Positions 4,308-22,125 of a stretch of DNA of 22,406 nt are shown piece after piece. The stretch is from the IMG/VR virus record IMGVR_UViG_2537562020_000008. One strand, written 5' to 3'. The position numbers and the translations under genes were made by a program. How positions within the stretch are numbered: position 1 is the first letter of the stretch; each line of letters opens with the position of its first letter. This DNA is from a virus (taxonomy: Duplodnaviria > Heunggongvirae > Uroviricota > Caudoviricetes). The notes under the pieces were generated by a model that saw nothing but the letters and a program-made list of their open reading frames with translations, was not told the DNA's origin and made no database searches.

Positions 4308-4855
4308 GCGTTAGTTTCTCCACAGTCACGACACGCCACGGCGCCCGGAGCTGCACACTCGCGGGCGTCATTACTTTCTGAAATGCAAAAGATTTTGTAG
4401 ACCAGTGCTGCATGCTCCTGCAGCTTCGAAATTGAGAGATATAGCTCGTCGTTAATTGCAGTTTTCTCATGCGGTTCCACTACACCGTCTTCGATTGCTG
4501 AACGAATCTGTTTTGAATAACTGCCGATCTGTTCAATGACCTCCAGCAGGCGTTGGTTGATATCGGCGTTGTCCACATCCTCGACATCAGGAAGAGACAC
4601 AAAGACGCCATTTGCAGACTGCGCCACAGCGTCAGCAATGAAGTGAGTTCCACCAGCACGTTGCAAAATCATTGCCCATCCCAGCGGGAAAATCTGATCG
4701 CCATCGGCACGAAGGCGGTTAAATAATGCGTTCTCTGTTACATCCAGCCAGTCAGCAGCTTCAGCGTACCCCCCCGGCAACGCTGCGATAGTTTTTCTGA
4801 CAGCTTTCACGTACCACTCAGGCTGTTTTTCTACTTTCCAGTGATGCTTACCCAC
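4304..4855 (-). CDS. Phage regulatory protein, CII-like (CP76 family) - tentative
   Basis: 183 aa immediately downstream of cro in the rightward operon; overall pattern ([35 protein letters not shown]...) resembles CP76-type CII regulators as I recall them. Confidence 0.5.
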
Positions 4856-5108
4856 GGTTCACCTCCTGTTCCTGTGGTTTAAACCCATTCTGGTTTTGGC
4901 TAGATTGAAAACGTGCCGGATAAAGAATCTGCATTTCGCTGACTTCACCCTTAAAAAAATTGGCTAAACGTTCTGCAAGCTCGATAGATGGAATCTGCTC
5001 CAGCCTCTCAATACGACTCAACGTCGCTGGATTGACTTGAACACCCGCAGCAACATGCTGCAAAGTGAAACCATGCGCCTTACGCACATTTCGTAATGGT
5101 GATTGCAT
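4848..5108 (-). CDS. cro: Cro-like HTH (XRE-family) repressor
   Basis: 86 aa; HTH motif GFTLQHVAAGVQVNPATLSRIERLEQIPSIELAERLANFF; divergent from the cI-like gene across an operator-rich 97-bp spacer. Confidence 0.8.
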   Translation of the reverse strand: MQSPLRNVRKAHGFTLQHVAAGVQVNPATLSRIERLEQIPSIELAERLANFFKGEVSEMQILYPARFQSSQNQNGFKPQEQEVNRG

Positions 5109-5205
5109 ACGCCCTCCAAATATTGCGCGTTATGCATGTTATTTCACGCAATTATTTTGCGCAAGTTGATTTGCTTATCACGCAATAAAGAAATGTAATA
5201 AACGC
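5109..5205. promoter_or_regulatory. Immunity-region operator/promoter region (OR-like) between cro and cI
   Basis: Seen directly: ttgcgcgttatgcat (5123..5137), cacgcaattattttgcg (5144..5160) and ttgcttatcacgcaa (5171..5185), sharing TTGC/GCAA half-sites. Confidence 0.7.
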
Positions 5206-5898
5206 ATGAACATAGGAAACCGAGTCAGACAACTTCGCCAAGCGAAGAACATGAAAATCGCCGATCTCGCTGAAGCGATAGGAGTAGATGCGGCGAACAT
5301 CTCGCGCTTAGAAACGGGTAAGCAAAAACAATTTACCGAACAAACACTGAGTAATATTGCCAAGAGCTTAGGTGTTGATATTGCTGATCTCTTTACCTCT
5401 GCCCACAAAAGTAATACTGTATATAAAAACAGTAATAATGAGGATGTTGCGCAGGTGAAGGATGTGTTCCGTATTGAAATGCTGGATATCAGTGCCAGTG
5501 CGGGAAATGGCCTTATCCAGGGCGGTGATGTCATTGATGTGATTCATGCCATCGAATACAGAACTGATAATGCTGTATCAATGTTCGGCGGACGACCAGC
5601 CAATCACATCAAAGTTATCAACGTTCGTGGGGACAGTATGTGTCCAACCATTGAGCCCGGAGATCTCATCTTCGTTGATGTCAGCATCAATCAGTTTGAT
5701 GGTGATGGTATATATGTCTTTGGTTTTGATGACAAAATATACGTTAAAAGACTTCAAATGATTCCTGACAAACTGCTGGTGATTTCTGATAACCAGATTT
5801 ACCGTGAATGGGGAATTACTAGCGAAAACGAACACCGATTCATGGTCTTTGGAAAGGTCTTAATCAGTCAGTCGCAAACCCTTAAGAGACATAATTAA
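5206..5898 (+). CDS. cI: cI-like prophage repressor (N-terminal XRE HTH + C-terminal LexA-like S24 peptidase domain)
   Basis: 230 aa; HTH (MKIADLAEAIGVDAANISRLETGK) and C-terminal S24-type region (VRGDSMCPTIEPGDLIFVD ... IYVKRL). Confidence 0.9.
   Translation: MNIGNRVRQLRQAKNMKIADLAEAIGVDAANISRLETGKQKQFTEQTLSNIAKSLGVDIADLFTSAHKSNTVYKNSNNEDVAQVKDVFRIEMLDISASAGNGLIQGGDVIDVIHAIEYRTDNAVSMFGGRPANHIKVINVRGDSMCPTIEPGDLIFVDVSINQFDGDGIYVFGFDDKIYVKRLQMIPDKLLVISDNQIYREWGITSENEHRFMVFGKVLISQSQTLKRHN
5415..5434. promoter_or_regulatory. Near-consensus SOS (LexA) box embedded in the cI coding sequence
   Basis: Seen directly: TACTGTATATAAAAACAGTA versus consensus TACTGTATATATATACAGTA; CTGT-N8-ACAG core intact. 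Confidence 0.5.
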
Positions 5899-5917
5899 CC
5901 TCAATATCCCATCCATC

Positions 5918-5942
5918 GGCCACCGAAAGGTGGCTTTTTATT
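5918..5942 (+). terminator. Rho-independent terminator downstream of cI
   Basis: GGCCACC-gaaa-GGTGGC hairpin followed by TTTTTATT, 20 nt after the cI stop. Confidence 0.75.
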
Positions 5943-5952
5943 ACCTATAAAT

Positions 5953-5989
5953 TTGCATATCTCGCAAATATCACTTGCATGTCTCGCAA
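5953..5989. promoter_or_regulatory. OL-like operator pair (two 15-bp TTGC-N7-GCAA sites, 22 bp apart)
   Basis: Seen directly: ttgcatatctcgcaa (5953..5967) and ttgcatgtctcgcaa (5975..5989), same half-sites as the cro/cI intergenic sites. Confidence 0.55.
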
Positions 5990-6175
5990 TTTAATTTTAT
6001 CTTTTGTTCCAGACCAACTACAGGATTACAACAAAATCTGGTTGCAACACGGTGCATGTGTCGTAAGCAGTCAGTAAATGTCAAAAACGAACAGGCAGGA
6101 CGCCCACGAAGTAGCCGCCTGGGGCATATGAAGTCCAGGATGATTCGTTGAGTCATGTTGTGCCACTAGGCACTC

Positions 6176-6472
6176 ATGTTAAAGCAGGTGTATGAAATGA
6201 AAGTCCAGATTTTAAACAATAACTGTGAAGTCGTTTGGTCATACGACATAGCCGCCCCTGTAGATCAGAGCGGCGATAGCTGGACCAATGGGAAACATCA
6301 GATTATGGCTGGAGTTGTGTTCTCTTTACGCCGTGCTTTGGAACAGGCTGAAGTATTTCCATCAGACCCTGAATGGAAATGGCCTTTTTCTATTTGTCCA
6401 AATTCGGAGAGCACATTTCAGAAAATTGGTCAGAAAGTCGCACTCGAAGAGCATCAGCCAACTGTTTCCTGA
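6176..6472 (+). CDS. Hypothetical moron protein (possible start at 6196, MKVQILNN...)
   Basis: ORF downstream of the OL-like sites at the position occupied by rexAB/sieB in lambdoid phages. Its 3' end overlaps the convergent ORF by ~80 bp, so one of the two may be mis-called. Confidence 0.35.
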   Translation: MLKQVYEMKVQILNNNCEVVWSYDIAAPVDQSGDSWTNGKHQIMAGVVFSLRRALEQAEVFPSDPEWKWPFSICPNSESTFQKIGQKVALEEHQPTVS

Positions 6473-10010: not shown

Positions 10011-11050
10011 AGGCTGAAGCATGGCGGGTCAGCAAACTTGGTGAAATACCTGATATAACGTTCGAGGAAGCGTGTGTCAGGTGGCTTGAAGAGAAAGCAC
10101 ATAAAAAATCACTGGACGATGACAAAAGCCGGATCGGATTCTGGCTTCAACATTTCGCAGGAATGCAACTAAGAGACATTACTGAATCAAAAATTTATTC
10201 AGCAATGCAGAAAATGACGAACCGGCGTCATGAGGAAAACTGGAAACTCAGGGCAGAAGCATGCAGAAAAAAAGGGAAACCTGTTCCAGAATACACGCCA
10301 AAACCAGCGTCCGTTGCAACGAAGGCTACGCATCTTTCATTTATAAAGGCCCTACTAAGAGCCGCAGAGCGTGAATGGAAAATGCTGGATAAGGCACCAA
10401 TTATTAAAGTGCCTCAACCAAAGAATAAACGGATCCGCTGGCTGGAGCCCCATGAAGCACAAAGGCTGATTGATGAATGTCCGGAGCCATTAAAGTCTGT
10501 TGTTGAATTTGCACTGGCAACAGGCTTAAGACGCTCGAACATCATCAACCTTGAATGGCAACAAATAGATATGCAGCGCCGGGTGGCATGGATAAACCCG
10601 GAAGAGAGTAAATCAAACCGCGCAATCGGCGTTGCGCTGAATGATACTGCATGTCGCGTTTTGAAAAAACAAATCGGGAATCATCACCGTTGGGTATTTG
10701 TGTACAAGGAAAGCTGTACCAAACCAGACGGAACGAAAGCGCCAACAGTAAGGAAGATGCGGTATGACGCAAACACAGCCTGGAAAGCAGCGCTGAGACG
10801 GGCTGGTATTGATGATTTCAGATTTCACGACTTGAGACACACCTGGGCAAGTTGGCTGGTTCAAGCCGGAGTCCCGTTGTCAGTGTTACAGGAAATGGGA
10901 GGCTGGGAGTCTATCGAAATGGTTCGTCGATATGCTCACCTTGCACCTAATCACCTTACCGAACACGCACGGCAAATAGACTCGATCCTGAACCCATCGG
11001 TCCCAAATTCGTCCCAGTCAAAAAATAAGGAAGGTACTAATGATGTGTAA
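9887..11050 (+). CDS. int: Tyrosine integrase, P22-type
   Basis: 387 aa; [47 protein letters not shown]... and C-terminal [41 protein letters not shown] (catalytic R..HxxR..Y); abuts a tRNA-Thr 3' fragment. Confidence 0.9.
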
Positions 11051-11064
11051 CTTATTGATTTAAA

Positions 11065-11113
11065 TGGTGCCGATAATAGGAGTCGAACCTACGACCTTCG
11101 CATTACGAATGCG
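11065..11113 (-). other. att core: 3' 49 nt of a tRNA-Thr (thrW-type, anticodon CGT) gene; the 5' half of the tRNA is not present here
   Basis: Reverse complement CGCATTCGTAATGCGAAGGTCGTAGGTTCGACTCCTATTATCGGCACCA equals the anticodon-loop-to-CCA segment of tRNA-Thr(CGT) as recalled; the sequence 5' of it is not tRNA-like. Confidence 0.8.
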
Positions 11114-11201
11114 TAAATTGATCTTGTAAAATCAATACCTATCGAATTTAAATGGATTTTTTGCCACAATATTGCCACAGTTCGTTAGGAATCAGACAGA
11201 A

Positions 11202-12275
11202 ATGGCGACTATACGCAAACGTGGTAACTACCAATGGGAAGCTCAAATCCGTAAACGTGGTTTTCCCTCTCAAACCAAAACCTTTAACACCAAAGTAGAA
11301 GCAGAAGCTTGGGCCAAAATGATCGAGTCAGAAATGGCGAGAGGAGTTTGGCTTAGCCGCAGCGAAGCGGAATCTACGACATTGTATGAAGCCCTAACGC
11401 GATATGAAAAAGAGATTGTTCCCGACAAAAAAGGGGCAGTGCAAGACCGATCATTGGTGCGGATACTAAAAGGCACTCAGCTGGCGAAAAACTATATGGC
11501 CAGCATCAGGAGTGCCGATGTCGCCAAGCTGAGAGATGAATGGTTGAAAATCTATGCTCCTGCAACCGTTTTAAGGCGTTTGGCCTTACTTTCTCATGTA
11601 TTCAATGTTTCGCGGAAAGAATGGGGCATGGAGAGCCTGCTGAACCCCGTAGAGGCCATTCGTAAACCCCAACCCAAGAACTCCAGGACCAGACGCCTAG
11701 AAGCGCTGCCTGTAGTTTCTGAGAAAACCGGTGTTACGTCAGGAAAGCAAATAGCCAACGAGATCGAACATATCATCGCCGCAACACATTCATTAGTATT
11801 GCCAGCAATCATTCTTCTGGCGTTAGAGACAGCCATGCGCCGTAGCGAAATCGCAGAGCTTCGATGGCGCTTTATCGATCTTGATCGGCGAGTTGCACAT
11901 CTGCCGGATACTAAGAATGGTAATGCCCGCGATGTCCCTTTATCAACGAAAGCCATTACGATACTGTCCAGTCTCAAGGAACATTCTAAGCCAGCTGCTG
12001 ATAAGGTTTTTGATATGCGTGCAGACGCGATTACCCGAGCTTTTGACCGAGCTGTAAAACGAGCCAGAGAACGATACGAGAAAACAAACTCATTATGTGA
12101 TGAATCTTTCCTTAAAGATTTAAGATTTCATGACCTTCGACATGAAGCAACTTCTCGACTTGCTGAAATTTTCCCTATGCATGAACTAACCAAAATTACA
12201 GGACATAAAGATCCAAGAATGCTAATGCGGTATTATCATCCAAAAGCTGAAGATTTGGCGTTAAAGTTGAAATAA
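11202..12275 (+). CDS. Second tyrosine recombinase/integrase (island integrase; a longer ORF begins at 11172)
   Basis: RBS AGGAA before the ATG at 11202; C-terminal LRFHDLRHEATSRL ... LMRYYH catalytic signature. Confidence 0.8.
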   Translation: MATIRKRGNYQWEAQIRKRGFPSQTKTFNTKVEAEAWAKMIESEMARGVWLSRSEAESTTLYEALTRYEKEIVPDKKGAVQDRSLVRILKGTQLAKNYMASIRSADVAKLRDEWLKIYAPATVLRRLALLSHVFNVSRKEWGMESLLNPVEAIRKPQPKNSRTRRLEALPVVSEKTGVTSGKQIANEIEHIIAATHSLVLPAIILLALETAMRRSEIAELRWRFIDLDRRVAHLPDTKNGNARDVPLSTKAITILSSLKEHSKPAADKVFDMRADAITRAFDRAVKRARERYEKTNSLCDESFLKDLRFHDLRHEATSRLAEIFPMHELTKITGHKDPRMLMRYYHPKAEDLALKLK

Positions 12276-12284
12276 GGACGTTGT

Positions 12285-13061
12285 ATGGATTATAAAAATA
12301 AGTTAGTTGATGCATCACCAAAATTAAACAACCCTCAACTATTGGCTATAATATACTTAATACCTTTTGGATACTTGATTGTAGAAAACCCATTATGGCT
12401 AGAAAATATATACATTGCCGCTCCAATTTTCCTATCATCTATAGCTTTATTAACCAGTGTATACATAGGATATCGTGATTTATTAAATAAAGTATTTAAT
12501 AATGCAGTAGTTAAATGGGGCGTAACTGGCTTTACATATTCCGTATGCTTATGGATCGCAAAGTTTAAGCTTGACATAGCTTATGGTATAGTCCCAGAAA
12601 ACCTTAATTACTCGACATTAGCTTATGCTTTCATGCTCTCATTTCCAATAGGGGCAATGATTTGTGCAATTACAGTCTATATATACATATTTTTGCGAGA
12701 TGTATCCCCAGCAAAAATAGTAATATCCTCTATGATTTCAGTATATATTGGAAGCTTGGCTCAACATCATATACAGATGAACAATCTTCCTGAAAAAATA
12801 ATATTAATAGGACTTATAATTATGGTCCCCTATAACATGGTCAATTTAGCTAGTTCATTAGTTATTAAAAGGAAATTTAATTTTAATCGTTTAGTATCAG
12901 GCTTATCCCTTTTTGCTGTGTCAGTTGCTCTTTTTATTATTAGCATGACAGCAATGAAATACATTGAAAGATTTCAAGAAAAGTTTATTTTTCTCGATGC
13001 AAGAACATCTACGACATGTGGTAGCTCAGAAAGCAAATCTCTTTATATTGAAAAAAAATGA
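12285..13061 (+). CDS. Polytopic inner-membrane protein, unknown function
   Basis: 258 aa with several long hydrophobic segments; starts 10 nt after the integrase stop with an AAGGA RBS; AT-rich codon usage. Confidence 0.6.
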   Translation: MDYKNKLVDASPKLNNPQLLAIIYLIPFGYLIVENPLWLENIYIAAPIFLSSIALLTSVYIGYRDLLNKVFNNAVVKWGVTGFTYSVCLWIAKFKLDIAYGIVPENLNYSTLAYAFMLSFPIGAMICAITVYIYIFLRDVSPAKIVISSMISVYIGSLAQHHIQMNNLPEKIILIGLIIMVPYNMVNLASSLVIKRKFNFNRLVSGLSLFAVSVALFIISMTAMKYIERFQEKFIFLDARTSTTCGSSESKSLYIEKK

Positions 13062-13162
13062 AAATCAGTGTTATAAAATATCAGGAAATAAATTCTCGGA
13101 GTTAAGACTAACTCTTGTAGATAAAAACATCTTGAATATAAATAATAAAGGCACTTCAACTT

Positions 13163-13390
13163 ATGAACAAAAATAACCCTGCTAATTCATTTTCTATAGA
13201 AGCAAGGAAAGAAGCTTTTCGGAGAGCTGAAGCCAGTCTTTTTTTATCAAGTAAAGATCCCAAAGGCTCCTCATTTTTTAATGAAATAAAAACTAAGGTA
13301 ATCAATGGAGAGCTAACCTATGAAGAGGCAAAGAGAGAAGTATTAAATTATCACATTGAACAATCTAAAAATCAAAATAAAAGAGGCTAA
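13163..13390 (+). CDS. Small VbhA-like (Fic-antitoxin fold) protein - tentative; canonical inhibitory Glu motif not evident
   Basis: 75 aa; RRAEASLFLSS ... VINGELTYEEAKREVLNYH parallels VbhA (ARNALASQRLEG ... VVVGELETSDVIKDLMERI) by eye. Confidence 0.4.
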   Translation: MNKNNPANSFSIEARKEAFRRAEASLFLSSKDPKGSSFFNEIKTKVINGELTYEEAKREVLNYHIEQSKNQNKRG

Positions 13391-13406
13391 CATTTAGTTA
13401 GCCTCT
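13382..13406 (-). terminator. Hairpin terminator for the minus-strand 70-aa gene, overlapping the 3' end of the plus-strand small gene
   Basis: AGAGGCTAAC-attta-GTTAGCCTCT perfect 10-bp stem; a U-rich tract follows on the minus-strand transcript. Confidence 0.5.
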
Positions 13407-13411
13407 TCTCA

Positions 13412-13624
13412 CTAGTGAGCTATTTTATAGTCCCTTAATGCATTTTTAAGTAACTCCGTTTGCTCATCAGCATCATCATAATTATAAATTCCCGTAGCAG
13501 AATAATACTCTTCGATGCATAGAATATTTATCAATGGTTCACAAATCTCTTTAATAAAATCCTTGTTGTTATCGGCAAAAATAATTTTTATTCCTTCCAA
13601 AACAAAGCTATTATAATCAGCCAT
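13412..13624 (-). CDS. Hypothetical small acidic protein (70 aa)
   Basis: Strong RBS (AGGAGGTGGATAATG); acidic composition; no family recognised. Confidence 0.55.
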   Translation of the reverse strand: MADYNSFVLEGIKIIFADNNKDFIKEICEPLINILCIEEYYSATGIYNYDDADEQTELLKNALRDYKIAH

Positions 13625-13693
13625 TATCCACCTCCTTACAGGTGTTTAGTGGAAGCGTCAGTTAACGTTACCGCGCTAACTGACGCGCCTAAA

Positions 13694-15097
13694 TCAAGAT
13701 TTTTTACTGCCAGTTAAACTATCACCCTCAAACTCATCCTGTTCGTGGTTAGTCTGACGATCGGCTGTGTGTTTACGTATTTGATTCGCTATTTCCCCAC
13801 CAACGGTCTGTTGTCTTCGGATAGTATTAGTACTTCCCTTCATCATCTGATACTCCGAAGCTCCGTTAGACAGCCCGCTCGCCATGTGAGAAGCCATGCG
13901 GCCAGCTCGTGAGAATGATGAAGCAAACCCCTGGCTTCCTCCGCTGACGCTACCTGTATTACTCCCTGCAGAAGAACCACCGGAACCGCCTGATGGTTGT
14001 CCTCCAGAAGTATCTACGGAACCGGTATCTTCCCCTCCGCCAAATCCTCCACCTGAACCACCTTTATCACCAGAACCAGATTCTTCGGCCATCGCCGCTT
14101 GTGCAGATTCAAATGCTGCTTTTAGAGCGGAAGCACCACCACTGACTTGAGCTGTAGCACTTATTGCCATTGCCCCAGCGCCACTGATTGCAGTAGTAGC
14201 AGCGCCAGTAATCATACCTGCTCCAAAACCACCGATCCCTTGTAAGGACGCTCCTCCAACAACGCCTGATAACAACAACGGTAATTTATTCGTCAATACT
14301 AAAAGAATAATTGACGCCAGAAGTAAAACAATAAGACTATTAAGATCAGGAATATCATTTTTAATAATAGAAAAATACTGATCTATAAATGATTGCCCAA
14401 TCCCAATGATTAATGTCATCGTAAATAACTGAATACCAATCGATAATACTGTGCGTAAGTAATTTATTGCTATATCAGAAGTCCATTTCGAGCCACCAAA
14501 CCCAAGCAAAATAACTCCTGCATAACACAACACCCATGCAGAAACTAACATTATTAGCATATTTATCGCGATAAGCGCCATTACTACTAATACTATTATC
14601 GCGACGGTTATCATAATGGTCGAAATCATTGGAGACCAAATTGATGCTGCTGAACTGACCTTTGTTAATATCACAAATGCCATATCCACTATGCTGGAGG
14701 GTGAAATACCAGTACTTGTTCCTAAAGCATTTGCTGCAAGTTGTCTCATTGAGTTAATTATAGATTGTGATATGGCTGGGCCGTTGATTAAAAGATAATA
14801 AAAAAAACCAATCACGGCAAAAAAACGAACTATTTCTGCAAGTGCACTGATTAAACCTTCCCCTTGCATCGCCAACATACCAAATGTCCAAACCATACTT
14901 ATTAATACCAACCCCCAGAAGAGCCAATTTGCATAATCACCAATTACTAATGACCATGTGCTGGCTACTTGCTGAAACTTATCTAATAACGTATCAAGTA
15001 ATCCGCTACTATCTAATTGACCAGCATAAGCATTTACAGAAAACAAAAAAAACATTCCTAAAAAAGTGAGCTTGCTTACTATTCTCATAATTACCAT
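13694..15097 (-). CDS. trbL: TrbL/VirB6-like type IV secretion protein (polytopic, Gly/Ser-rich C-terminal tail)
   Basis: 467 aa; multiple TM segments then a low-complexity tail (GSGGGFGGGEDTGSVDTSGGQPSGGSGGSS); directly follows trbJ and a trbK-like ORF, as in P-type Tra2 clusters. Alternative start at 15088. Confidence 0.75.
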   Translation of the reverse strand: MVIMRIVSKLTFLGMFFLFSVNAYAGQLDSSGLLDTLLDKFQQVASTWSLVIGDYANWLFWGLVLISMVWTFGMLAMQGEGLISALAEIVRFFAVIGFFYYLLINGPAISQSIINSMRQLAANALGTSTGISPSSIVDMAFVILTKVSSAASIWSPMISTIMITVAIIVLVVMALIAINMLIMLVSAWVLCYAGVILLGFGGSKWTSDIAINYLRTVLSIGIQLFTMTLIIGIGQSFIDQYFSIIKNDIPDLNSLIVLLLASIILLVLTNKLPLLLSGVVGGASLQGIGGFGAGMITGAATTAISGAGAMAISATAQVSGGASALKAAFESAQAAMAEESGSGDKGGSGGGFGGGEDTGSVDTSGGQPSGGSGGSSAGSNTGSVSGGSQGFASSFSRAGRMASHMASGLSNGASEYQMMKGSTNTIRRQQTVGGEIANQIRKHTADRQTNHEQDEFEGDSLTGSKKS

Positions 15098-15264
15098 TCT
15101 CGCTTAGGGCTAGGATTGTTATTGCCACGCAGGGCACATTTATCGTAGTTATGTTCGTTCAATTTATTCTCTGGCGTCGATAAACAATCTTCATCTTTTT
15201 TATCGCAAGAGCATAGAATTAATGAAATTATTAGAATAAAAATGACCAAAAGTTTATCTTTCAT
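15091..15264 (-). CDS. trbK: TrbK-like small lipoprotein (entry exclusion), 57 aa; below the ORF-track size cutoff
   Basis: Own translation: MKDKLLVIFILIISLILCSCDKKDEDCLSTPENKLNEHNYDKCALRGNNNPSPKREW; signal peptide with lipobox-like LCSC; lies between trbJ and trbL. Confidence 0.5.
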   Translation of the reverse strand: MKDKLLVIFILIISLILCSCDKKDEDCLSTPENKLNEHNYDKCALRGNNNPSPKREW

Positions 15265-15275
15265 TCAGCTCTCCC

Positions 15276-16070
15276 TCACCAAATTCGCTTCGGGCTTGGT
15301 GTGTTCTCGCCAGCTAACGCTTTTTCATCAGCGACTATTTGTTGGGCTTCTTTATCAGCCTCAGCCTGTGCCAGTGTTGCTGCAGCGTTTTGCTGAGCTA
15401 CCAGAAGCGAGCGGATTTGCAGCAACTGGTTCGTTTGAGCACTGGCAAGCTGGTTAGCGGCCTGAATAGCTTCCATTTGCCCTTGTGCGCCGGTTGCCTG
15501 CGTTTGCAAATCTGCAAGGTTGTCAGCATCGCTTTGCAGTGTTTCCTGCTGTTCGTCAAGAGCCTTAAATACAGCGTCATTGGCCTTTTTACGTGCCTCA
15601 GAGCTGTTCTGTTCAGCTTTGCGCAGTGCGCTAATTTCATCCGCAGTACATTCAACATTACTGTTAAAGCACGGTGATGAGCGGTAGTAATTCACGTCCT
15701 GATAACGTTTCAGATATGAATCAAGACTCCCGGCCTGGTTTTTGTAGTAATTTAGGGTGTCCTGCGCCTGCAACAATTTGTTGATGGTCGAATTGGCCTG
15801 ATCCCAGATATAGGCTGCAGGTGCGACTGTATTTTTGAGCATGTTTTCATACTGCTGCAGCTGCGTCTGGTACTGCTGGATCTGTTTTGCCACAGCCTGA
15901 ACGTTGTTGACTGCGCTGATTGTGGTCTGCACCACATTAGTACCATCGATTACAGGGATACCGGCTGTCGCCGGTAATGCCATGATGGACGCCAGGAAGG
16001 AAGCAGCTAATGATTTTTTAGCTGCTAAAATCCCTCTCAGTGATGAAAATACTCGGAGCATTAACTTCAT
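15276..16070 (-). CDS. trbJ: TrbJ/VirB5-like type IV secretion protein
   Basis: Signal peptide then GIPVIDGTNVVQTTISAVNNVQAVAKQIQQYQTQLQQYENMLKNT, matching the TrbJ signature as recalled; Gln-rich coiled-coil C-terminus. Confidence 0.8.
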   Translation of the reverse strand: MKLMLRVFSSLRGILAAKKSLAASFLASIMALPATAGIPVIDGTNVVQTTISAVNNVQAVAKQIQQYQTQLQQYENMLKNTVAPAAYIWDQANSTINKLLQAQDTLNYYKNQAGSLDSYLKRYQDVNYYRSSPCFNSNVECTADEISALRKAEQNSSEARKKANDAVFKALDEQQETLQSDADNLADLQTQATGAQGQMEAIQAANQLASAQTNQLLQIRSLLVAQQNAAATLAQAEADKEAQQIVADEKALAGENTPSPKRIW

Positions 16071-16151
16071 TTGCCCACCTCAAATTTAACTGATTATTAA
16101 TATTGAAAACTCGTACTTTTAACAAATACAGATATTTAGGGAACCATAAAT

Positions 16152-16517
16152 TTATTTATTCAAGATTCTATCCATAATATTTCTTAGTTCTTGTCTGGTT
16201 GATTCTATTTTAGCAAGCAACGTTTTTATCAATGAGGGTGAAAAATCAACTGTGCGTGGATCGTTAGCTAACCACAGTTTAAGTAACCCACCAAGTCGAC
16301 CAAGATCAGCATTTACTCGGCTAAGCTCTACAACCTGTTCAATATCTACCATAGACTCAACCTGATAACCCATTGCTACTTTACGAATGAAACTCGCTAC
16401 ACTTAAGCCGGATGCTTCTGCATTATCCTGGATTTGCGCTTTTTCATCTGGCAAACAATAAACTTTAATTGGTGTACTATTTTTTCTAGTCTGAGAAACG
16501 GTCATATCATTCTCCAT
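16152..16517 (-). CDS. mobC: MobC-like relaxosome accessory protein (ribbon-helix-helix)
   Basis: 121 aa; RHH-like N-terminus (KVYCLPDEKAQIQDNAEASGLSVASFIRKVAMG) and DLGRLGGLLKLWL resembling the MobC-family conserved segment. Confidence 0.55.
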   Translation of the reverse strand: MENDMTVSQTRKNSTPIKVYCLPDEKAQIQDNAEASGLSVASFIRKVAMGYQVESMVDIEQVVELSRVNADLGRLGGLLKLWLANDPRTVDFSPSLIKTLLAKIESTRQELRNIMDRILNK

Positions 16518-16584
16518 ACAGGCGGTAGCCGATCAGCCTCGCAGAGCAGGACTCCGTTGAGCAGCTCAGCTGCGAATAAGGGAA

Positions 16585-16635
16585 GGTAAAGTAGAAGCAC
16601 CGTTTACGGTGGGCCTACTTTACATATCCTGCCCT
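16585..16635. other. oriT-like site: 9-bp inverted repeat around an inner palindrome, followed by a MOBP-type nick motif ATCCTGC
   Basis: Seen directly: GTAAAGTAG-aagcaccgtttacggtgggc-CTACTTTAC then acatATCCTGCcc at 16626..16632; lies ~70 bp upstream of mobC. Confidence 0.4.
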
Positions 16636-16787
16636 ACATTTGCCGTTGTGAATCTGTGTACGTATTGTGTATTTCTGTGTACTCAGTGTGTTTTCCTAAA
16701 GCATTTGTGCAGGATTAGTAGTGTAAAAATGTGCAGCATATGTGTTTATTGGAATGGAAATTATTTGAATGCCCCTAAGAGATATTT

Positions 16788-17081
16788 TTATTCTCGCGGC
16801 TTGGGTTTTGGCGGCCTGCCACGTTTCCTTTGACATCTATTTATCTCTTTCGCTATATCGTCATTTTCTGTCTTTGACTCAACAGATTTATCTATCCAGT
16901 CCTTAACATCTTCTCTACGCCAGAGAAGACGTTTATTACCGGGAAGACGGCATCTTGGTGGAAGACATTTTGGATTTCGCGTTGCATCACTGCGGATACT
17001 TTTTACAGTTTTCTTTAATGCAAAAGCCAACTCTTCAACGGTTATAAGTTCTGGCATAACTGATTTCATCGAAGAACCCAT
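16788..17081 (-). CDS. Excisionase/AlpA-like HTH DNA-binding protein with basic AT-hook-like tail
   Basis: 97 aa; LITVEELAFALKKTVKSIRSDATRNPKCLPPRCRLPGNKRLLWRREDVKDWI is an AlpA/Xis-type HTH pattern; C-terminal RKRGRPPKPKPRE. Confidence 0.55.
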   Translation of the reverse strand: MGSSMKSVMPELITVEELAFALKKTVKSIRSDATRNPKCLPPRCRLPGNKRLLWRREDVKDWIDKSVESKTENDDIAKEINRCQRKRGRPPKPKPRE

Positions 17082-17103
17082 CTCTCAGTAGAAATTTGAG
17101 GAT

Positions 17104-17131
17104 TTTAGCGGCTAAAATTTTAGCCGCTAAA
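17104..17131. promoter_or_regulatory. Perfect 28-bp palindrome just upstream of the excisionase-like gene (operator or bidirectional hairpin)
   Basis: Seen directly: TTTAGCGGCTAAAA|TTTTAGCCGCTAAA. Confidence 0.45.
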
Positions 17132-17382
17132 GTTTGCTAACCAACGTTATGAATTGAGAATAATTAAAACTTACTGGCAAAAAGAATAATGTCAACAGGG
17201 TTTTTATTCATCGGATTCTTACTCCATATGAAATTGGTTTTATTGACCGATTTCTGAATGACACTAAGGTTTTAATAATTCCTTTAATCTTTTTGGTTAT
17301 ATAAAAGGTTAAAGATCAGGTTAGAGAGGTGTGGAAAAGCGATATATTCACTTGTTTACTATGACAATTTTAAATTATATCC

Positions 17383-17448
17383 GTACCTCAAATGTCATGA
17401 AAGCGTACCTCATATGTCATAAAGGCGTACCTCATATGTCATATAATA
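17383..17448. repeat. Three tandem copies of a 22-bp unit (GTACCTCATATGTCAT core)
   Basis: Seen directly: gtacctcaaatgtcatgaaagc / gtacctcatatgtcataaaggc / gtacctcatatgtcatataata. Confidence 0.85.
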
Positions 17449-17528
17449 AAAAATAAGCAAACAAGTTATACACAATATTATTAACAGAATCTGTGGATAA
17501 ATACACAGATTATACATGATAAAATAGA

Positions 17529-17734
17529 TTGTTTAGCTAAACTAAATAACAATAAATAAAATGAAACAAAATGTAAATAACAGGGGGGGTGTAGGTGACT
17601 TATAAATTTGGTTAGCTAACCTTTATAAGAAACACTGTTTGTAAATGATTCATTTCTGACAACGGATATATCGAATTTGAGTAAGAAAAACACTTCAACT
17701 AACCTTACTCTCTGATTTGTTTAGCTAAACAAAT
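17529..17734. promoter_or_regulatory. Three palindromes with a shared TTAGCTAA core upstream of the HigA-like gene (putative operators)
   Basis: Seen directly: ttgtttagctaaac (17529..17542), ggttagctaacc (17610..17621), atttgtttagctaaacaaat (17715..17734, perfect 20 bp). Confidence 0.5.
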
Positions 17735-17775
17735 TACTGTAAGGAATCCGATGACGTTAAAAAAAAGGGGGGGAT

Positions 17776-18033
17776 ATGAGGACAATAAATGCTGCACCTT
17801 CAACTGTCGGAGAGATTTTATACGAAGAATTCTTGAAACCATTGGATATGCCTCCCGCAAGACTTGCTGAACTGATGGATACATCATATGAAAAAATTTG
17901 GGAAATAATTAAAAATGAGCGAAATATAACTCTTGAAGAAGCTATTCAACTCTCGATAATTTTCAATACAGATGCATCTTTTTGGGTGAAACTGCAAGAG
18001 CTACATGAGGCATGGTTTAATAAACAAAAGTAA
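17776..18033 (+). CDS. HigA-like HTH (XRE-family antitoxin-type) regulator, no cognate toxin ORF detected
   Basis: 85 aa; VGEILYEEFLKPLDMPPARLAELMDTSYEKIWEIIKNERNITLEEAIQLSIIFNTDASFWVKLQ matches the HigA/VapI pattern; preceded by an A8G7 homopolymer pair. Confidence 0.65.
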   Translation: MRTINAAPSTVGEILYEEFLKPLDMPPARLAELMDTSYEKIWEIIKNERNITLEEAIQLSIIFNTDASFWVKLQELHEAWFNKQK

Positions 18034-18233
18034 GGTTATTCAATTAGATTACTTAGTACTAATACATAATTTGCTTTGAATAATACTCATACATTTCTAA
18101 CGACTTATTAAAGCGATAATATACTCGGACGACTGAGGATTAAAAAATCCGATCCTTGATGATGGGAACCTGCCATGACTAGGTAAGTCATTTTAGCAGT
18201 GGTACAGGCGACATTAAAAGCCGATATAAAGAA

Positions 18234-18266
18234 GCCCGACTGGTAAGATCGGGCCTTTTTATTTTT
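18234..18266 (+). terminator. Rho-independent terminator
   Basis: GCCCGA-ctggtaaga-TCGGGC hairpin followed by CTTTTTATTTTT. Confidence 0.6.
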
Positions 18267-18688
18267 CCACTCTGGCCTGAATAGAACATCCTACATTAGA
18301 CGTTAAGATCTTACATCTAATTATCCGAAACTACTAATGGATGCGTAGTTGCATTTGACCTGACCGCCCATTTGCGGGTTACTCTACCATCGCCAATAAA
18401 GTCCGGCTACTCGAATTCGGAAGTATTAGGCTATAGGTCATAAACCTGAATAACTGCTATGTGCTGAAGCGGATAAAGCTGACATCATTATGCACCAATC
18501 AACTCGGTGTAAGTCAGCTAGTTGGTGATGGAGTGACTTGTCAATAGTTGTAGCCCCTACCAGTGCATCGGAGATTCTTGAGTGTAACCTTAGTTGCATT
18601 AATCAGAAGTAAAGGAAACGTACTATGAAAATCAGTACTCTTAATCAAGAGATCCCCCGTTCTCTCACGGAAAAGGGGGATTGAATTT

Positions 18689-19951
18689 TCAAATTTTCTT
18701 TTTAGCGATAAAAATACAGTAAAAATATAAGGTTTTGATAATGTGATTAATGCTGTGCACCTCGCGAAATAATAGTAATAGCTTCCTCATAAAAGACATG
18801 AAACTAAGTTCGTTGTATTTAGTGCGTTCCATTCCTTCCTTAGCGAAATAGTAGGTTATCATCTGAATTGACTCTTTATATTCATATTTATAATGTGCAA
18901 TGCCATTTCGCAGCTTGTTGTCTAAAGCATTGAGATCAACTATATAAAAGCTATCATCCAATCCGCTTATTTTCGTGCCTAAATCAACGTTTGCATATTC
19001 GTTGAGACTAGAAAAACCTTTAATTAAATCGCCTTTTTTATTTAGTCTTACTGAATCGTCAAAAATATTATGATCTCCGCGTTTTAATAAGTTATTCAAT
19101 CCGGCCACAATTATTAATTGCCGAGAGAATACTTCAGATAAGTCTTTGTAAAAATTGTTACAGTCATCAAATTCGGCAGTTGAAACTCGAGCAGGAATCA
19201 TTGATAAATCTACGTTTTTATCATAATCATAGTAAAGCGCTGGGCGTGAAGGGAGTTCAAAGTCAAGCATTTTGGGATATAGGCTTAAACAATCGAAATG
19301 CAAACTTTTCAGAAACCCACTTCCAATAATATCATCTAAAAATTTATTTAGCTGTTTTGGATGATTTTTCTGAATATAATGAAGAAATTGTGGCATTTTT
19401 TCACTAATTTCAGCATTATGTGCATGTATTGTAAAGGGAAATGACATTGCAGAGGTTGCTGTATAAAGTGCGGAAAGGATATCTTGTATTTTTAGCGAAC
19501 GAGGTTTTTTCAGAGTAGGTAATTCTTTCATTAGGTTACTGAAAGTATTGTAATTTCCTTGTTTGTATTGAGTAATGAGTCGCTGGAGCTTATCGCGATG
19601 TTTATAAATATAATTCATTCCATTTAGATGTGCGTTCAGCATTAAGTATTTTTCATGACCTATTGCACTTGTTATTTTTAAGAATGCTGTTTTTCCTTTT
19701 TCGTATTTTCCAAAGCCTACGGGAAAATCTAAATGCAAATCGATGAATGGATTTGTTGTGCCAAAGTCATTGCTTTCTACAGTTTCCGCACCGTTAAATA
19801 CAGGCTCTCCCTCCCCAAGAGTAAACGATATATTATTCTCACAATTTGGACATGCAAATTGGAACGGTTGTATGTCTCGATTAGACATACCTATTCTTGT
19901 ATCAATGACCGTGTCACATACAAGGCATTTAAATTGCTGTAAAAAATTCAT
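18689..19951 (-). CDS. Uncharacterised 420-aa protein: N-terminal CxxC...CxxC zinc ribbon and C-terminal R-N-x3-H (HEPN-type) motif
   Basis: C9/C12 and C34/C37 (CLVC ... CPNC); RNGIAH at aa 348..353; strongly AT-rich codon usage; no family recognised. Confidence 0.6.
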   Translation of the reverse strand: MNFLQQFKCLVCDTVIDTRIGMSNRDIQPFQFACPNCENNISFTLGEGEPVFNGAETVESNDFGTTNPFIDLHLDFPVGFGKYEKGKTAFLKITSAIGHEKYLMLNAHLNGMNYIYKHRDKLQRLITQYKQGNYNTFSNLMKELPTLKKPRSLKIQDILSALYTATSAMSFPFTIHAHNAEISEKMPQFLHYIQKNHPKQLNKFLDDIIGSGFLKSLHFDCLSLYPKMLDFELPSRPALYYDYDKNVDLSMIPARVSTAEFDDCNNFYKDLSEVFSRQLIIVAGLNNLLKRGDHNIFDDSVRLNKKGDLIKGFSSLNEYANVDLGTKISGLDDSFYIVDLNALDNKLRNGIAHYKYEYKESIQMITYYFAKEGMERTKYNELSFMSFMRKLLLLFREVHSINHIIKTLYFYCIFIAKKKI

Positions 19952-20198
19952 AAATATTTTATTAATCCTATAAATTATAAGTTAAGTATTAGTCTTTTAT
20001 CTACAAACCAAAGCCACTTTACTACTTTACCTAACTGCACTTTAAACAATCATAAGTTCTTTTTTTTTAAAAAGGTAGTCCAAAGATACCAATTTATTCA
20101 ATATCAACGAGAATTCGAGACTCCTATGTGAGTAAAAAACTATGAGCTTCATGCCATGCTTTCAATAAATGTCTTCAGTTACCCATAAATTTACTGGA

Positions 20199-20726
20199 TT
20201 AACAATTTGTAGTCTTTCCGACCAAATTACCGCGCGCAGTGTGACCCCATACTTTAGAGGTCACCTTATCTCTTTCCACTAGTTGTTTACGGTGCATCAA
20301 ATCGGCAAGCAGTATTGAAACAAAGAACATGAATTTTGTTTTGGGAGTATTAGGAACATCTTTGGGTCCAAGCCAAGGTAGCTGCTCCAGTTGATTTTGT
20401 ATTTTGGGTGTTGCGAAGCTAACACCATTCCAACTATGCCCAAAAGCATTTCTAATGCTACGCAGTGTGTTTAGTTCTTTGTATTCGTGTTCCATTATCA
20501 GTCCTAACGCATATGCTAAGCCTGTTCTAGCAGCAAAAGATGATAAAGGCGCTGTTGCACCATTCAGTAGACCTTTAGCTACTTTGTCATTTAACAGGTG
20601 AGCCTGGATGATCTCGGATAACCACTCATCGAAAATGGATGCTGCTATTAGAACAGAGCCACGATCTGATTCTTTATTTAGTTCGGACAAAAATTGACCG
20701 AGTTCAATTTGGGTTTTATCACTCAC
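20199..20726 (-). CDS. Uncharacterised 175-aa alpha-helical protein with R-N-x3-H (HEPN-type) motif; by-eye resemblance to MtlR/DUF4145-like domains
   Basis: RNAFGH at aa 92..97 in ...LAYALGLIMEHEYKELNTLRSIRNAFGHSW; by-eye resemblance to the MtlR helical domain. Confidence 0.55.
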   Translation of the reverse strand: MSDKTQIELGQFLSELNKESDRGSVLIAASIFDEWLSEIIQAHLLNDKVAKGLLNGATAPLSSFAARTGLAYALGLIMEHEYKELNTLRSIRNAFGHSWNGVSFATPKIQNQLEQLPWLGPKDVPNTPKTKFMFFVSILLADLMHRKQLVERDKVTSKVWGHTARGNLVGKTTNC

Positions 20727-21214
20727 AGACTCTGGAACTCCTTTCTCAAAAATTCAACATGAGGACGCTTCGGTCGCACATCAATCTTAACCATTAGATT
20801 ATGAAATTGTGTTAGGTCTGGGTCAAACTATGAACAAAAACAGAAAAAATTATTGTGACGTTATTTAGGGGGACCTACAATGACACATTTTAAACAATTA
20901 CTTTAATATCAATAAATTGGATCGTATTACTGTGTTCCTATTATTGGTTTAGCTCAGCTTGTCGCTCACAGCGGACCTTCAGCTCGATAGCAAGTCCGCT
21001 CCGTTGGAGTGCCAGATGCGCTCTAAATTTGATGGCTAGTATTGAAGAGATACTTGGGCATCATGGTTATGGTGTAAATACCGTCTGTGATACCCGCAGA
21101 GGTGCTAGGTTTAGGCACTGAGAAGGATACATTGAACATGAATTCAGAGTGATGTAACACAAGTCATAGAAAATTAGTGATTTATATTGAAAAGGGGGTT
21201 ATTTTATTAAAGCA

Positions 21215-21234
21215 AGGCCGCCTTTAGGCAGCCT
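21215..21234 (-). terminator. Putative terminator hairpin for the 225-aa gene
   Basis: On the minus-strand RNA: AGGCUGCC-UAAA-GGCGGCCU (one G-U pair) followed by a U-rich tract; 6 nt after the stop codon. Confidence 0.4.
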
Positions 21235-21240
21235 CTTATT

Positions 21241-21918: not shown

Positions 21919-21922
21919 GCTC

Positions 21923-22120
21923 TTACACCTTTTTACCCGTCACGATATTATAGGCGTCTGCTGCTGACTGTTCAATTAGTAGGCTGATTTTCTTCTTTTC
22001 AACTTCATTTGCTGCACGAATAGTAACATTGTATCCACTACCTTTTTGGTTATTGATTCCTTTAATTTGATAGGAAAAATCAGAGCAATTTTCTGAATCC
22101 TTAAAGAAAGCTTCAACCAA
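21923..22120 (-). CDS. Hypothetical small protein, possibly 5'-truncated by the adjacent IS1
   Basis: Reading frame stays open into the IS1 terminus; the first candidate start is a TTG right at the IS1 boundary. Confidence 0.35.
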   Translation of the reverse strand: MVEAFFKDSENCSDFSYQIKGINNQKGSGYNVTIRAANEVEKKKISLLIEQSAADAYNIVTGKKV

Positions 22121-22125
22121 AATCC

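Follow-up and report, generated by a model that had tools for sequence, protein, structure and literature searches.

Why does the repressor gene of a prophage carry, within its own coding sequence, what looks like an operator for LexA? According to the lambda paradigm, RecA-stimulated self-cleavage is the sole route by which the SOS response reaches such a repressor. A first-pass annotation of a 22,406-nucleotide stretch of viral DNA (the window) had drawn attention to a box of this kind inside cI, and we ask here what the box is, whether it is kept in related genes and what surrounds it.

A LexA operator-like sequence in the cI linker

The cI gene lies on the plus strand at positions 5206-5898 and encodes a repressor of 230 aa (ORF list, Pfam and tblastn) that is 100% identical to the annotated cI of Shigella phage SfII (tblastn vs KC736978). 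All features of a self-cleaving repressor of the lambda type are present: an N-terminal HTH domain (HTH_3/HTH_26, residues 3-64), a linker (residues 65-103), a C-terminal Peptidase_S24 domain (residues 104-218; Pfam), and the self-cleavage residues Ala99-Gly100 (5500-5505), Ser144 in the motif GDSM (5635-5637) and Lys181 in VKRL (5746-5748), which are invariant in the homologue alignment (A2). The gene occupies the prophage immunity region between operator sets, divergent from a cro-like HTH gene on the minus strand (4848-5108). The intergenic control region (5109-5205, assigned to neither strand) is predicted to contain operator-like repeats, a PR-like promoter on the minus strand (-10 at 5141-5136) and a PRM-like promoter, TTGCTT-17-TGTAAT at 5171-5199, with a predicted transcription start close to the cI ATG. 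There is no Shine-Dalgarno (SD) sequence at the true cI start. Rfam gave no match in the cI region, and an AlphaFold2 model of cI, built from a 17-sequence alignment, was confident for the HTH only (mean pLDDT 51) and was set aside.

The putative operator is the 20-mer TACTGTATATAAAAACAGTA at 5415-5434, assigned to neither strand and located inside the cI ORF. As the first-pass annotation had stated, it differs from the consensus TACTGTATATATATACAGTA only in the spacer (2 mismatches, at positions 12 and 14) and keeps the CTGT-N8-ACAG core exactly. The codons under the box, N70 T71 V72 Y73 K74 N75 S76 N77, are read in frame and fall between the Pfam HTH and Peptidase_S24 domains, which confirms the linker position given in that annotation. 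With its two CTG/CAG motifs 10 bp apart, the box is also close to the gammaproteobacterial operator pattern TACTGT(AT)4ACAGTA; the published spacing rule for LexA operators places these motifs exactly 10 bp apart in a 20-bp palindrome (PMC5999292).

The earlier estimate that such a match is unlikely by chance was borne out. Across the whole window the CTGT-N8-ACAG core occurs exactly once, no other site matches the consensus with at most 3 mismatches, and 0/100 dinucleotide-preserving shuffles of the window contained any match at that threshold. On a LexA weight matrix derived from 14 E. coli sites in the literature, with umuD and sbmC left out, the box scores 26.8 bits; the runner-up in the window reaches 10.4 bits, and true E. 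coli sites score 14.4-27.3 bits. By sequence comparison, the umuD operator of E. coli K-12 matches the box in all 20 letters, and the sbmC operator is identical as well (PMC3009722 Table 4). Since TACTGTATATAAAAACAGTA is shared with these two operators, binding of LexA to the naked DNA is expected. Thus, the box is almost certainly a LexA operator, and we infer that LexA occupies it at the cI locus.

Selection on the box at the DNA level

We then compared cI homologues, as the first-pass annotation had proposed, and found that both close and distant relatives keep the box. Some 20 lineages, not phylogenetically independent and drawn from more than 12 enterobacterial genera, carry it at nt 207-210 of cI, down to 50% amino-acid identity. 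These genera include Escherichia/Shigella, Citrobacter, Salmonella (ST64B, Fels-1), Klebsiella, Kluyvera, Pantoea, Mixta, Rosenbergiella, Proteus, Serratia and Cronobacter, among others, and phiNP also bears the box. The homologue boxes score 18.9-28.6 bits on the LexA matrix, and the next best site in any locus reaches at most 13.5 bits.

The linker around the box is otherwise hypervariable among box-bearing lineages. Among 674 windows of 20 nt, the box ranks second in conservation (1.61 bits/nt), with flanks at 0.1-0.9 bits, and four-fold synonymous sites of the cI homologues are near saturation (median identity 0.36). The first-pass annotation had named synonymous variation abolishing the box in close homologues as evidence against its reading; instead of such drift, we observe synonymous positions that are frozen. 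The codon is ACT for T71 in 20/20, AGT for S76 in 20/21 and GTA for V72 in 18/22, and of the 105 conserved degenerate codon columns (means 0.50-0.51), these three deviate most. Residue 75 varies (N/T/P/D/S/H), yet its codon always ends in C, so that CAG is kept. Position 15 of the operator is A or C in all homologues, the two bases that LexA prefers there (PMC5999292), and variation in the homologue boxes is confined to positions that LexA tolerates. The 5415-5434 box is therefore kept by selection at the DNA level across many genera. A recent copy from umuDC was rejected as an origin, as the flanking DNA is unrelated. The ymfK/cohE gene of the E. coli K-12 element e14 was rejected as a homologue for this comparison: the linker of ymfK is unalignable and has no box, and RefSeq names the neighbouring gene ymfL.

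A promoter-like element, an internal start and a terminator around the box

Exactly 17 bp upstream of the box, on the plus strand, lies the -35-like hexamer TTTACC (5392-5397, codons L62-F63-T64), and the first hexamer of the box itself, TACTGT (5415-5420), would serve as the -10. They match the consensus at 4/6 and, for TACTGT vs TATAAT, 3/6 positions, and a strict consensus promoter scan of positions 4800-6200 returned no site. A weight-matrix scan, used after the strict scan came up empty, gives TTTACC-17-TACTGT 7.34 bits, placing it in the top 0.34% of window positions; the PR-like and PL-like promoters of the prophage score 8.0 and 7.75 bits, and TTGATC-17-TACTGT of umuDC scores 8.94 bits. 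The same -35 offset reaches at least 4 bits in 14/16 homologue lineages, a conservation that is inseparable from protein constraint because the hexamer lies within the codons of a conserved L-F-T motif. No other promoter-like arrangement on either strand is as well conserved as TTTAC[C/A/T]-17 bp-TACTGT; the means are 6.5 bits for the plus and 3.5 bits for the minus strand. A 47-bp synthetic fragment with TTGACA 17 bp from the same 20-mer is a working SOS-inducible promoter (PMC9074414), and we infer promoter activity for the intragenic arrangement as well.

Other candidate -10 elements were rejected. Taking AATAAT (5434-5439), downstream of the box, as the -10 of a plus-strand promoter gives 4.5 bits, and the homologues do not keep this arrangement; the central TATAAA is inconsistent across lineages (mean 2.4 bits). 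This central -10 is strong in lineages L096 and L101, whose TACTGT is degenerate.

Downstream of the box, the SD-like sequence GAGGA (plus strand, 5440-5444) stands 10 nt before the in-frame GTG of V84 (plus strand, 5455-5457), the predicted start of a short isoform in the E. coli/ST64B class. GAGGA pairs with the 3' end of 16S rRNA at a duplex energy of -6.4 kcal/mol, which ranks in the gene's top decile, and GTG84 and its SD are conserved in the window and in L005, L004, L090 and L112. The in-frame GTG of V87 (plus strand, 5464-5466) occupies the start position of most other lineages and is an alternative start here. In an unbiased scan of all codon columns, residue 87 ranks first for a start codon with a strong SD: a start is present in 16/23 and a start with a strong SD in 14/23, with a mean energy of -6.5 kcal/mol vs a background of -1.8 kcal/mol.

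All 20 box-bearing lineages have a strong SD 20-30 nt downstream of the box and an in-frame GTG/ATG at residues 84-95 (shifted to residue 95 in L006 and to residue 90 in L106), as opposed to 0/6 box-less or degenerate-box relatives (Fisher p = 9e-5, not phylogeny-corrected). The SD is encoded by differing amino-acid pairs across lineages (EG, GD, RR, GR, QE, QGG), and is therefore selected at the RNA level. Two further signals near the box were discarded: an out-of-frame ATG at 5444 opens an ORF of just 4 codons, and a possible -1 frameshift heptamer (A AAA AAC) does not fit the frame X XXY YYZ and lies in a run that is not conserved.

The predicted nested ORF (plus strand, 5455-5898) would encode an S24 protein without DNA-binding domain (DBD), of 147 aa from V84 or 144 aa from V87, that retains the Ala99-Gly100 cleavage site, Ser144 and Lys181. 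Directly after cI lies an intrinsic terminator on the plus strand (GGCCACC-GAAA-GGTGGCT followed by a T run, 5918-5945), and such a terminator is found 6-30 nt past the cI stop in 19/19 lineages checked; an internal transcript would therefore code for the C-terminal domain only. There is no polymerase gene near cI. The conserved unit is thus the box together with the co-occurring -35, ribosome binding site (RBS), start codon and terminator, a combination that resembles an SOS-controlled gene for the C-terminal domain nested within cI. No description of this box or of a short cI isoform turned up in the literature searched; the -35-like element at umuDC-like spacing, the SD with an in-frame start downstream and the conserved terminator are new here.

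A candidate nested SOS gene and its alternatives

Based on this organisation, the explanation that we favour, with a probability of roughly 55%, is that a LexA-repressed intragenic promoter makes a UmuD-like isoform of cI consisting of the C-terminal domain. The operator would overlap both the start point and the -10 (TACTGT) of a sigma-70 promoter whose -35 is TTTACC 17 bp upstream. In an undamaged lysogen, host LexA would keep this promoter shut while full-length cI is made from PRM, probably on a leaderless mRNA. Strong SOS induction would deplete LexA and let the internal promoter fire, yielding a transcript of about 500 nt that carries the GAGGA SD and the GTG at 5455 or 5464 and ends at the cI terminator. 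Its predicted product of 144-147 aa, a cleavage-site arm plus S24 without the DNA-binding domain, would be built like UmuD. Ribosomes might also use the internal RBS on the PRM transcript, in which case the isoform would be partly constitutive.

LexA, lambda cI and UmuD all dimerise through their S24 domains, and the most likely action of the isoform would therefore be subunit mixing, giving heterodimers with full-length cI that carry one DNA-binding domain. Such mixed dimers would weaken repression, and induction would be reinforced or locked in. This dominant-negative effect is proposed by analogy only; overproduction of a C-terminal fragment of P22 c2 is reported to induce prophage. The more far-reaching version of the proposal, that the 3' two-thirds of cI are an SOS-inducible nested gene for a UmuD-like, built-in antirepressor that poisons full-length cI dimers, is one that we regard as possible and hold tentatively. 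Such a two-in-one gene would then be found in SfII, several Stx2 phages, mEp460, ST64B, phiNP, Fels-1 and many uncharacterised prophages, and heteroimmune prophages with the same C-terminal domain might have their dimers poisoned by its isoform as well.

The closest known counterpart is umuDC, which has the identical 20-bp operator and a -35 placed 17 bp from TACTGT as the -10 within the box, a geometry that the cI promoter would share. Its downstream product is also an S24 protein without DBD and with a cleavage-site arm (139 aa for UmuD, 144-147 aa predicted in cI), and the closest solved structures to the cI C-terminal domain, by sequence, are UmuD/UmuD'. On the other hand, that domain is just 36% identical to UmuD over 83 aa, the cI unit is nested in frame inside a larger gene with unrelated flanking DNA, and cI is followed directly by a terminator instead of an umuC (Y-family polymerase) partner.

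The repressor module as a whole resembles lambda cI/PRM in its HTH and S24 domains, Ala-Gly site, Ser/Lys dyad, divergent cro, operator repeats on both sides of cI, PRM-like leaderless layout and terminator after cI. To our knowledge, lambda cI has neither a LexA operator nor an internal RBS/start in its linker, and the related Turner-type cI family, as compared here, has neither of them. A precedent for the isoform itself is the Tn5 transposase inhibitor Inh, a nested in-frame isoform without the N-terminal DNA-binding part that acts via mixed oligomers. The predicted cI isoform would be alike in having its own internal promoter or start, in DBD loss and in mixed-oligomer action; it belongs to another protein family, and in cI LexA would control the internal and not the full-length promoter.

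Direct SOS control of a prophage anti-repressor factor through a LexA box also has precedents, and the same logic is proposed for cI. Tum of coliphage 186 is a LexA-controlled antirepressor. GfoA/GftA/GfhA of the Salmonella Gifsy phages are LexA-controlled antirepressor modules (PMC3121763). Each of these is encoded by a small gene of its own at another place in the prophage and acts on a non-cleavable repressor, whereas the cI candidate is an in-frame part of a repressor gene that has the Ala-Gly, Ser and Lys cleavage apparatus. Induction of the Tum/Gifsy type needs LexA cleavage, and induction of the box-bearing Fels-1 does not (PMC3121763): a Fels-1 late-operon lacZ fusion is still switched on by mitomycin C in a lexA3(Ind-) Salmonella background (PMC3121763 Fig 2F). 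LexA cleavage and the cI box element are therefore not required for induction, and any role of the element would be modulatory. FsoR, the Fels-1 homologue of cI, is cleaved after mitomycin C (PMC3121763). Lemire et al. describe 'cleavage products', in the plural, for C-terminally FLAG-tagged FsoR under this treatment (PMC3121763); the plural is compatible with an additional C-terminal species and is only a lead.

The dispensability of the element in lexA3 cells would also suit a LexA roadblock or modulator of PRM transcription through cI without any internal promoter, lowering full-length cI mRNA in the undamaged state and raising it upon LexA cleavage, as a buffer against induction. The position of the box 210 nt inside the PRM transcript and its slow-dissociating, high-affinity umuD type of operator are in line with such a block. 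We know of no established mechanism by which LexA roadblocks elongation, and the fixed 17-bp spacing to the -35-like hexamer would be left unexplained, as would the SD and in-frame start that are lost together with the box; we consider a roadblock unlikely. That joint loss and the plus-strand SD/start speak equally against a LexA-repressed antisense promoter. On that reading, minus-strand RNA would extend back through cI to cro and the early lytic genes, hampering PRM and getting round the repression of PR. In its favour, the box is a palindrome whose centre is AT-rich, the direction is that of cro and the lytic operon, and some minus-strand promoter-like matches exist, but these score lower and less consistently than those on the plus strand (in the window, 4.35 vs 7.34 bits at best), and this reading appears quite improbable.

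The first-pass annotation had also suggested that a prophage protein of 108 aa in the nin region (minus strand, 1551-1877) might bind within cI. Its description as a LexA-DBD-only protein was correct: LexA_DNA_bind (PF01726, E 3e-19) is its only domain, it is 43% identical to LexA residues 1-86 and the recognition-helix motif NAA-EH is retained. Binding of the box by this protein is possible, and the gene accompanies this cI in SfII, mEp460, 1720a-02 and Stx2a phages. The suggestion did not hold as the main point, since each element occurs without the other: the gene is also present in phages with other cI types (SfV, SfIV, cdtI, Stx2c phages and others), and searches found no match to it in the box-bearing ST64B, Fels-1, phiNP, Eeyore/Flotzy and Klebsiella Kp48xx group. 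Because the box persists without it, the protein cannot explain the conservation, and it is very improbable that the box serves mainly for this uncleavable protein to bind in cI during lytic growth. Hardly credible, finally, is a conservation unrelated to LexA, through a TVYKNS protein motif, a cI mRNA hairpin or a homology patch for exchange of N- and C-terminal modules. T71, V72 and S76 are indeed invariant residues, the sequence is palindromic and the site is a domain boundary of a mosaic gene. Against this, the codon choice itself is frozen (ACT, GTA, AGT), and residues 70, 73, 74 and 75 are free to change provided that the T, an AT-rich spacer and [A/C]CAG remain; the half-sites are invariant instead of co-varying, which indicates a protein-binding site rather than an RNA stem; and a recombination patch would not give so position-specific a pattern, in which the conserved bases are exactly those contacted by LexA, with only A/C at position 15.

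If the nested LexA-repressed gene that we favour is real, the lysis-lysogeny switch would read LexA depletion in addition to RecA-stimulated cI cleavage, that is, a second, transcriptional SOS input, and an isoform of the repressor itself would be a new mode of encoding an antirepressor. Given a tightly bound operator of the umuD type, the element may set the damage threshold, namely the severity or duration of DNA damage before the prophage commits, which is relevant to the antibiotic-triggered induction of Stx phages. For annotation, regulatory sites and second starts can hide in the codons of a 'variable linker'. The box-bearing cI is the repressor of medically relevant phages, including serotype-converting SfII, Stx2a/Stx2k phages, Salmonella ST64B and Fels-1, and this cI allele is present at 90% DNA identity or more in about 1,040 of 5,426 complete E. 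coli genomes.

A LexA operator within the cI linker

Positions 5415-5434 read TACTGTATATAAAAACAGTA, the sole match to the 20-bp LexA consensus with ≤3 mismatches in the 22.4-kb window; a match was found in 0 of 100 dinucleotide-preserving shuffles of the window, which bears out the earlier claim of the first-pass annotation that such a 20-bp match is improbable by chance. The exact core CTGT-N8-ACAG likewise occurs once in the window, at this box. The box is in frame with a 230-aa ORF (5206-5898, + strand), where the codons AAT ACT GTA TAT AAA AAC AGT AAT encode N70-N77. Because the Pfam HTH domain (residues 3-64) ends before these codons and Peptidase_S24 (residues 104-218) begins after them, the box occupies the interdomain linker of cI, as that annotation had placed it. 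The same 20-mer constitutes the umuD operator of E. coli K-12 (locus L007, 329-348) and the sbmC operator (PMC3009722 Table 4). Recent copying from umuDC was considered and rejected, the DNA flanking the box being unrelated to umuDC.

The gene is a lambda-type self-cleaving cI, and its protein matches the cI annotated in Shigella phage SfII at 100% identity. It belongs to an immunity module, in which a divergent cro-like gene (4848-5108, - strand) lies on the same side as a CP76/YmfL-type gene, the replication genes and the nin genes, while yfdP-yfdT, xis and int lie on the opposite side of cI. A PRM-like promoter (TTGCTT-17-TGTAAT, 5171-5199) stops 7 nt short of the A in the cI ATG and would start RNA at about that base. 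No lineage, moreover, has a Shine-Dalgarno (SD) sequence before the cI start (mean -1.2 kcal/mol), and the mRNA for full-length cI is therefore probably leaderless, like that of lambda. The 15-mer TTGC[A/T]T[A/G]TC[T/A]CGCAA is present in three copies on both sides of cI (5171-5185, 5953-5967 and 5975-5989), which are likely the cI operators (OR and OL); a PL-like promoter, TTGCAT-17-TATCTT, overlaps the last copy. Within 1-1554 an IS66-family element (tnpB 199-546, tnpA 546-1223, tnpC outside the window) sits in the nin region and cuts rusA, of which a remnant is left at 1273-1554; the prophage is probably defective, with its immunity region intact.

We collected cI homologues from E. coli genomes (DNA identity classes ≥99%, ~93% and 70%), from one genome per species across bacteria (24 loci, 100% to 30% amino-acid identity) and from isolated phages (ST64B, phiNP, Fels-1, Cronobacter ENT47670, a Yersinia phage, ST101-KPC2phi6.1 and Turner). 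About 20 lineages, which span more than a dozen enterobacterial genera and reach as low as 50% amino-acid identity, have a LexA box at nt 207-210 of cI, and the remaining linker is hypervariable in both sequence and length. On a LexA weight matrix built from 14 published E. coli sites, umuD and sbmC excluded, the homologue boxes score 18.9-28.6 bits versus 14.4-27.3 for true sites, and the box tops every ~5.7-kb homologue locus by far (runner-up ≤13.5 bits). Across 20 lineages it is the second most conserved of the 674 20-nt windows in cI (1.61 bits/nt), level with the S24 catalytic core, and neighbouring linker bases reach 0.1-0.9 bits. Roughly one in five complete E. coli genomes carries the allele itself, as do SfII, Stx2, ST64B and Fels-1 phages; of 80 near-identical IMG/VR alleles 79 keep this box unchanged and the other has TGCTGT, as does the lexA operator (PMC3009722 Table 4).

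Judged by codon choice, this conservation acts at the DNA level. Synonymous drift is clearly absent from the box: the codons for T71 (ACT, 20/20), S76 (AGT, 20/21) and V72 (GTA, 18/22) are frozen and are extreme outliers among 105 conserved degenerate codon columns, whose mean top-codon fraction is 0.50 (four-fold) or 0.51 (six-fold). Four-fold synonymous sites have almost reached saturation (median pairwise identity 0.36). Residue 75 may be N, T, P, D, S or H, always with a codon-final C, so that CAG is kept; residue 70 also varies, nearly always with a codon-final T. Operator position 15 is A or C and nothing else, the bases that LexA favours there by measurement, and the operator requires CTG-N10-CAG (Culyba et al., PMC5999292). 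By sequence and conservation, therefore, the box qualifies as a LexA operator.

A putative promoter, a predicted internal start and a terminator

The box opens with the hexamer TACTGT, and a -35-like hexamer, TTTACC (5392-5397), precedes it by exactly 17 bp; as a caveat, TTTACC falls within the codons of a conserved L-F-T motif. With a simple sigma-70 weight matrix TTTACC-17-TACTGT reaches 7.34 bits, a score among the highest 0.34% of positions in the window, comparable to the PR-like (8.0) and PL-like (7.75) promoters of the prophage and above the PRM-like one (5.7); a strict consensus promoter scan reports none here. The best promoter upstream of umuD, TTGATC-17-TACTGT, reaches 8.94 bits with the same matrix. 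The layout at the cI box is better conserved than any other promoter-like arrangement of the two strands (mean 6.5 bits, ≥4 bits in 14 of 16 lineages), and in two lineages with a degenerate first hexamer (GACTGT, CACTGT) a central TATAAT with a good -35 gives 10.8 bits. The box can supply a -10, since a 47-bp synthetic fragment, TTGACA-17 bp-same 20-mer, is a working SOS-inducible promoter (PMC9074414).

The alignment was scanned, codon column by codon column, for an in-frame ATG, GTG or TTG downstream of a stretch strongly complementary to the 16S rRNA 3' end. Residue 87 ranks first among all columns of the gene, with a start codon in 16/23 sequences, a start plus top-decile SD in 14/23, and a mean energy of -6.5 kcal/mol versus a background of -1.8 over the gene. 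The E. coli/ST64B class has GTG84 (5455) as a shifted start, preceded by GAGGA (5440-5444). The SD is encoded by differing residues across lineages (EG, GD, RR, GR, QE, QGG), suggesting that selection acts on the RNA. An internal start with SD at residues 84-95 accompanies the box in 20/20 box-bearing lineages and occurs in 0/6 relatives with no box or a degenerate one (two Dryocola loci, Phaseolibacter, the Yersinia phage, ST101-KPC2phi6.1 and Turner; Fisher p = 9e-5, uncorrected for phylogeny). Both box and internal start are missing from the Turner-type cI (43% identity) that is widespread in E. coli. An intrinsic terminator, with divergent but compensated stems, follows 6-30 nt past the cI stop in 19/19 lineages checked, so a transcript from the box can encode only the C-terminal part of cI.

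Two local observations were also made. Between the internal SD and GTG84, ATGTTGCGCAGGT (5444-5456) matches the OR segment ATTTTGCGCAAGT (5154-5166) at 11/13 positions and is kept in the 93% class and not in homologue L090; the resemblance may be accidental, or the segment may be a weak cI half-site within the putative short-transcript leader. In Dryocola clanedunensis (L104) a decayed box, CGCTGTGCAAAAGCACAGCG, at cI nt 210 keeps CTGT-N8-ACAG around a GC-rich spacer (7 bits), GGA takes the place of codon 87 in the alignment, and in the sister locus L103 the CTG is gone too; L104 looks like a lineage caught losing the whole unit.

A proposed nested gene and its alternatives

Taken in order, a -35, an operator doubling as -10, a leader of ~25-35 nt, an SD, an in-frame GTG, the S24 domain and a terminator would form a unit that looks like a nested gene with a LexA-repressed promoter. 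Its predicted product, residues 84 or 87 to 230 (147 or 144 aa), retains the Ala99-Gly100 cleavage site, Ser144 and Lys181 and lacks the DNA-binding domain, an architecture shared with UmuD. By sequence, UmuD/UmuD' are the closest solved relatives of the cI C-terminal domain (E about 2.5e-4; UmuD 36% identical over 83 aa). LexA, lambda cI and UmuD all dimerise through their S24 domains, and the short isoform would thus most likely act through mixed dimers with full-length cI, weakening operator binding and reinforcing induction after LexA depletion. A well-translated isoform could soon outnumber full-length cI, because the latter probably comes from a leaderless mRNA. We infer every step from LexA occupancy onward.

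The Fels-1 repressor FsoR is a box-bearing homologue (L113, NC_010391, 1495-2190), with box TACTGTAAATAAATACAGTG, SD AGAGGAGA and GTG87. Single self-cleavage should yield one C-terminally tagged product. FsoR with a C-terminal FLAG gave 'cleavage products' after mitomycin C (Lemire et al. 2011, PMC3121763 Fig 2D, Western blot), a plural that we take as a lead only and not as evidence for the short isoform. A Fels-1 late-operon lacZ fusion is still activated by mitomycin C in lexA3(Ind-) (PMC3121763); LexA cleavage, and hence the box element, is thus non-essential for induction, and the element can only tune timing, threshold, commitment or cross-talk.

LexA bound at the box might instead roadblock transcription from PRM, which we consider unlikely, as this explains neither the -35 spacing nor the co-varying ribosome-binding site and start. 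An antisense promoter directed towards cro is improbable: promoter scans support it less well (best minus-strand arrangement, mean 3.5 bits over the 16 lineages) and the + strand features stay unexplained. That the box serves mainly the LexA-DBD-only protein of the prophage, a binder raised in the first-pass annotation, is more doubtful again, given that its gene is unlinked to the box, occurs with other cI types and has no match in the box-keeping ST64B, Fels-1, phiNP and Klebsiella phages. Conservation as a protein motif, RNA hairpin or recombination patch is the least credible, for synonymous codons are frozen and amino acids free at exactly the LexA-tolerant positions.

The proposed nested gene resembles known systems in part. 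It would follow the logic of the antirepressors that LexA controls in 186 and the Gifsy phages, but does not belong with them, having no separate gene, a cleavable repressor and induction without LexA cleavage. It has the operator of umuDC and, as predicted, a similar geometry and product architecture, yet lacks umuC and is embedded in cI. The literature searched, including for the exact 20-mer, describes neither a short cI isoform nor this box within a phage repressor; its coverage is incomplete, so that an earlier description is possible. The nested-gene hypothesis is open to direct testing.

The LexA-DBD-only protein, and an island beside the prophage integrase

The LexA-DBD-only protein (108 aa, 1551-1877, - strand, PF01726) is 43% identical to residues 1-86 of E. 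coli LexA, keeping the NAA-EH recognition-helix motif and an 'AGE' cleavage-site remnant with no protease domain. Its gene, found in 61 phage records (SfII, SfV, SfIV, cdtI, mEp460 and Stx2a/2c/2k phages), always adjoins dam and rusA there. If produced in lytic growth, such an uncleavable LexA mimic could re-repress host SOS genes.

From about 11050 to 22406 a second integrase and an island adjoin the prophage integrase. The island carries P-type conjugation genes (trbL, trbJ, traJ) and VbhA and HigA antitoxins. Rfam matches in this stretch are traJ-II RNA (16535-16634, - strand) and PtaRNA1 (13618-13690, + strand). A 112-nt 'tRNA-Ser' at about 11052-11163 is annotated by RefSeq and not called by ARAGORN; in other strains (FORC_031) tRNA-Thr and proA adjoin the same prophage instead.
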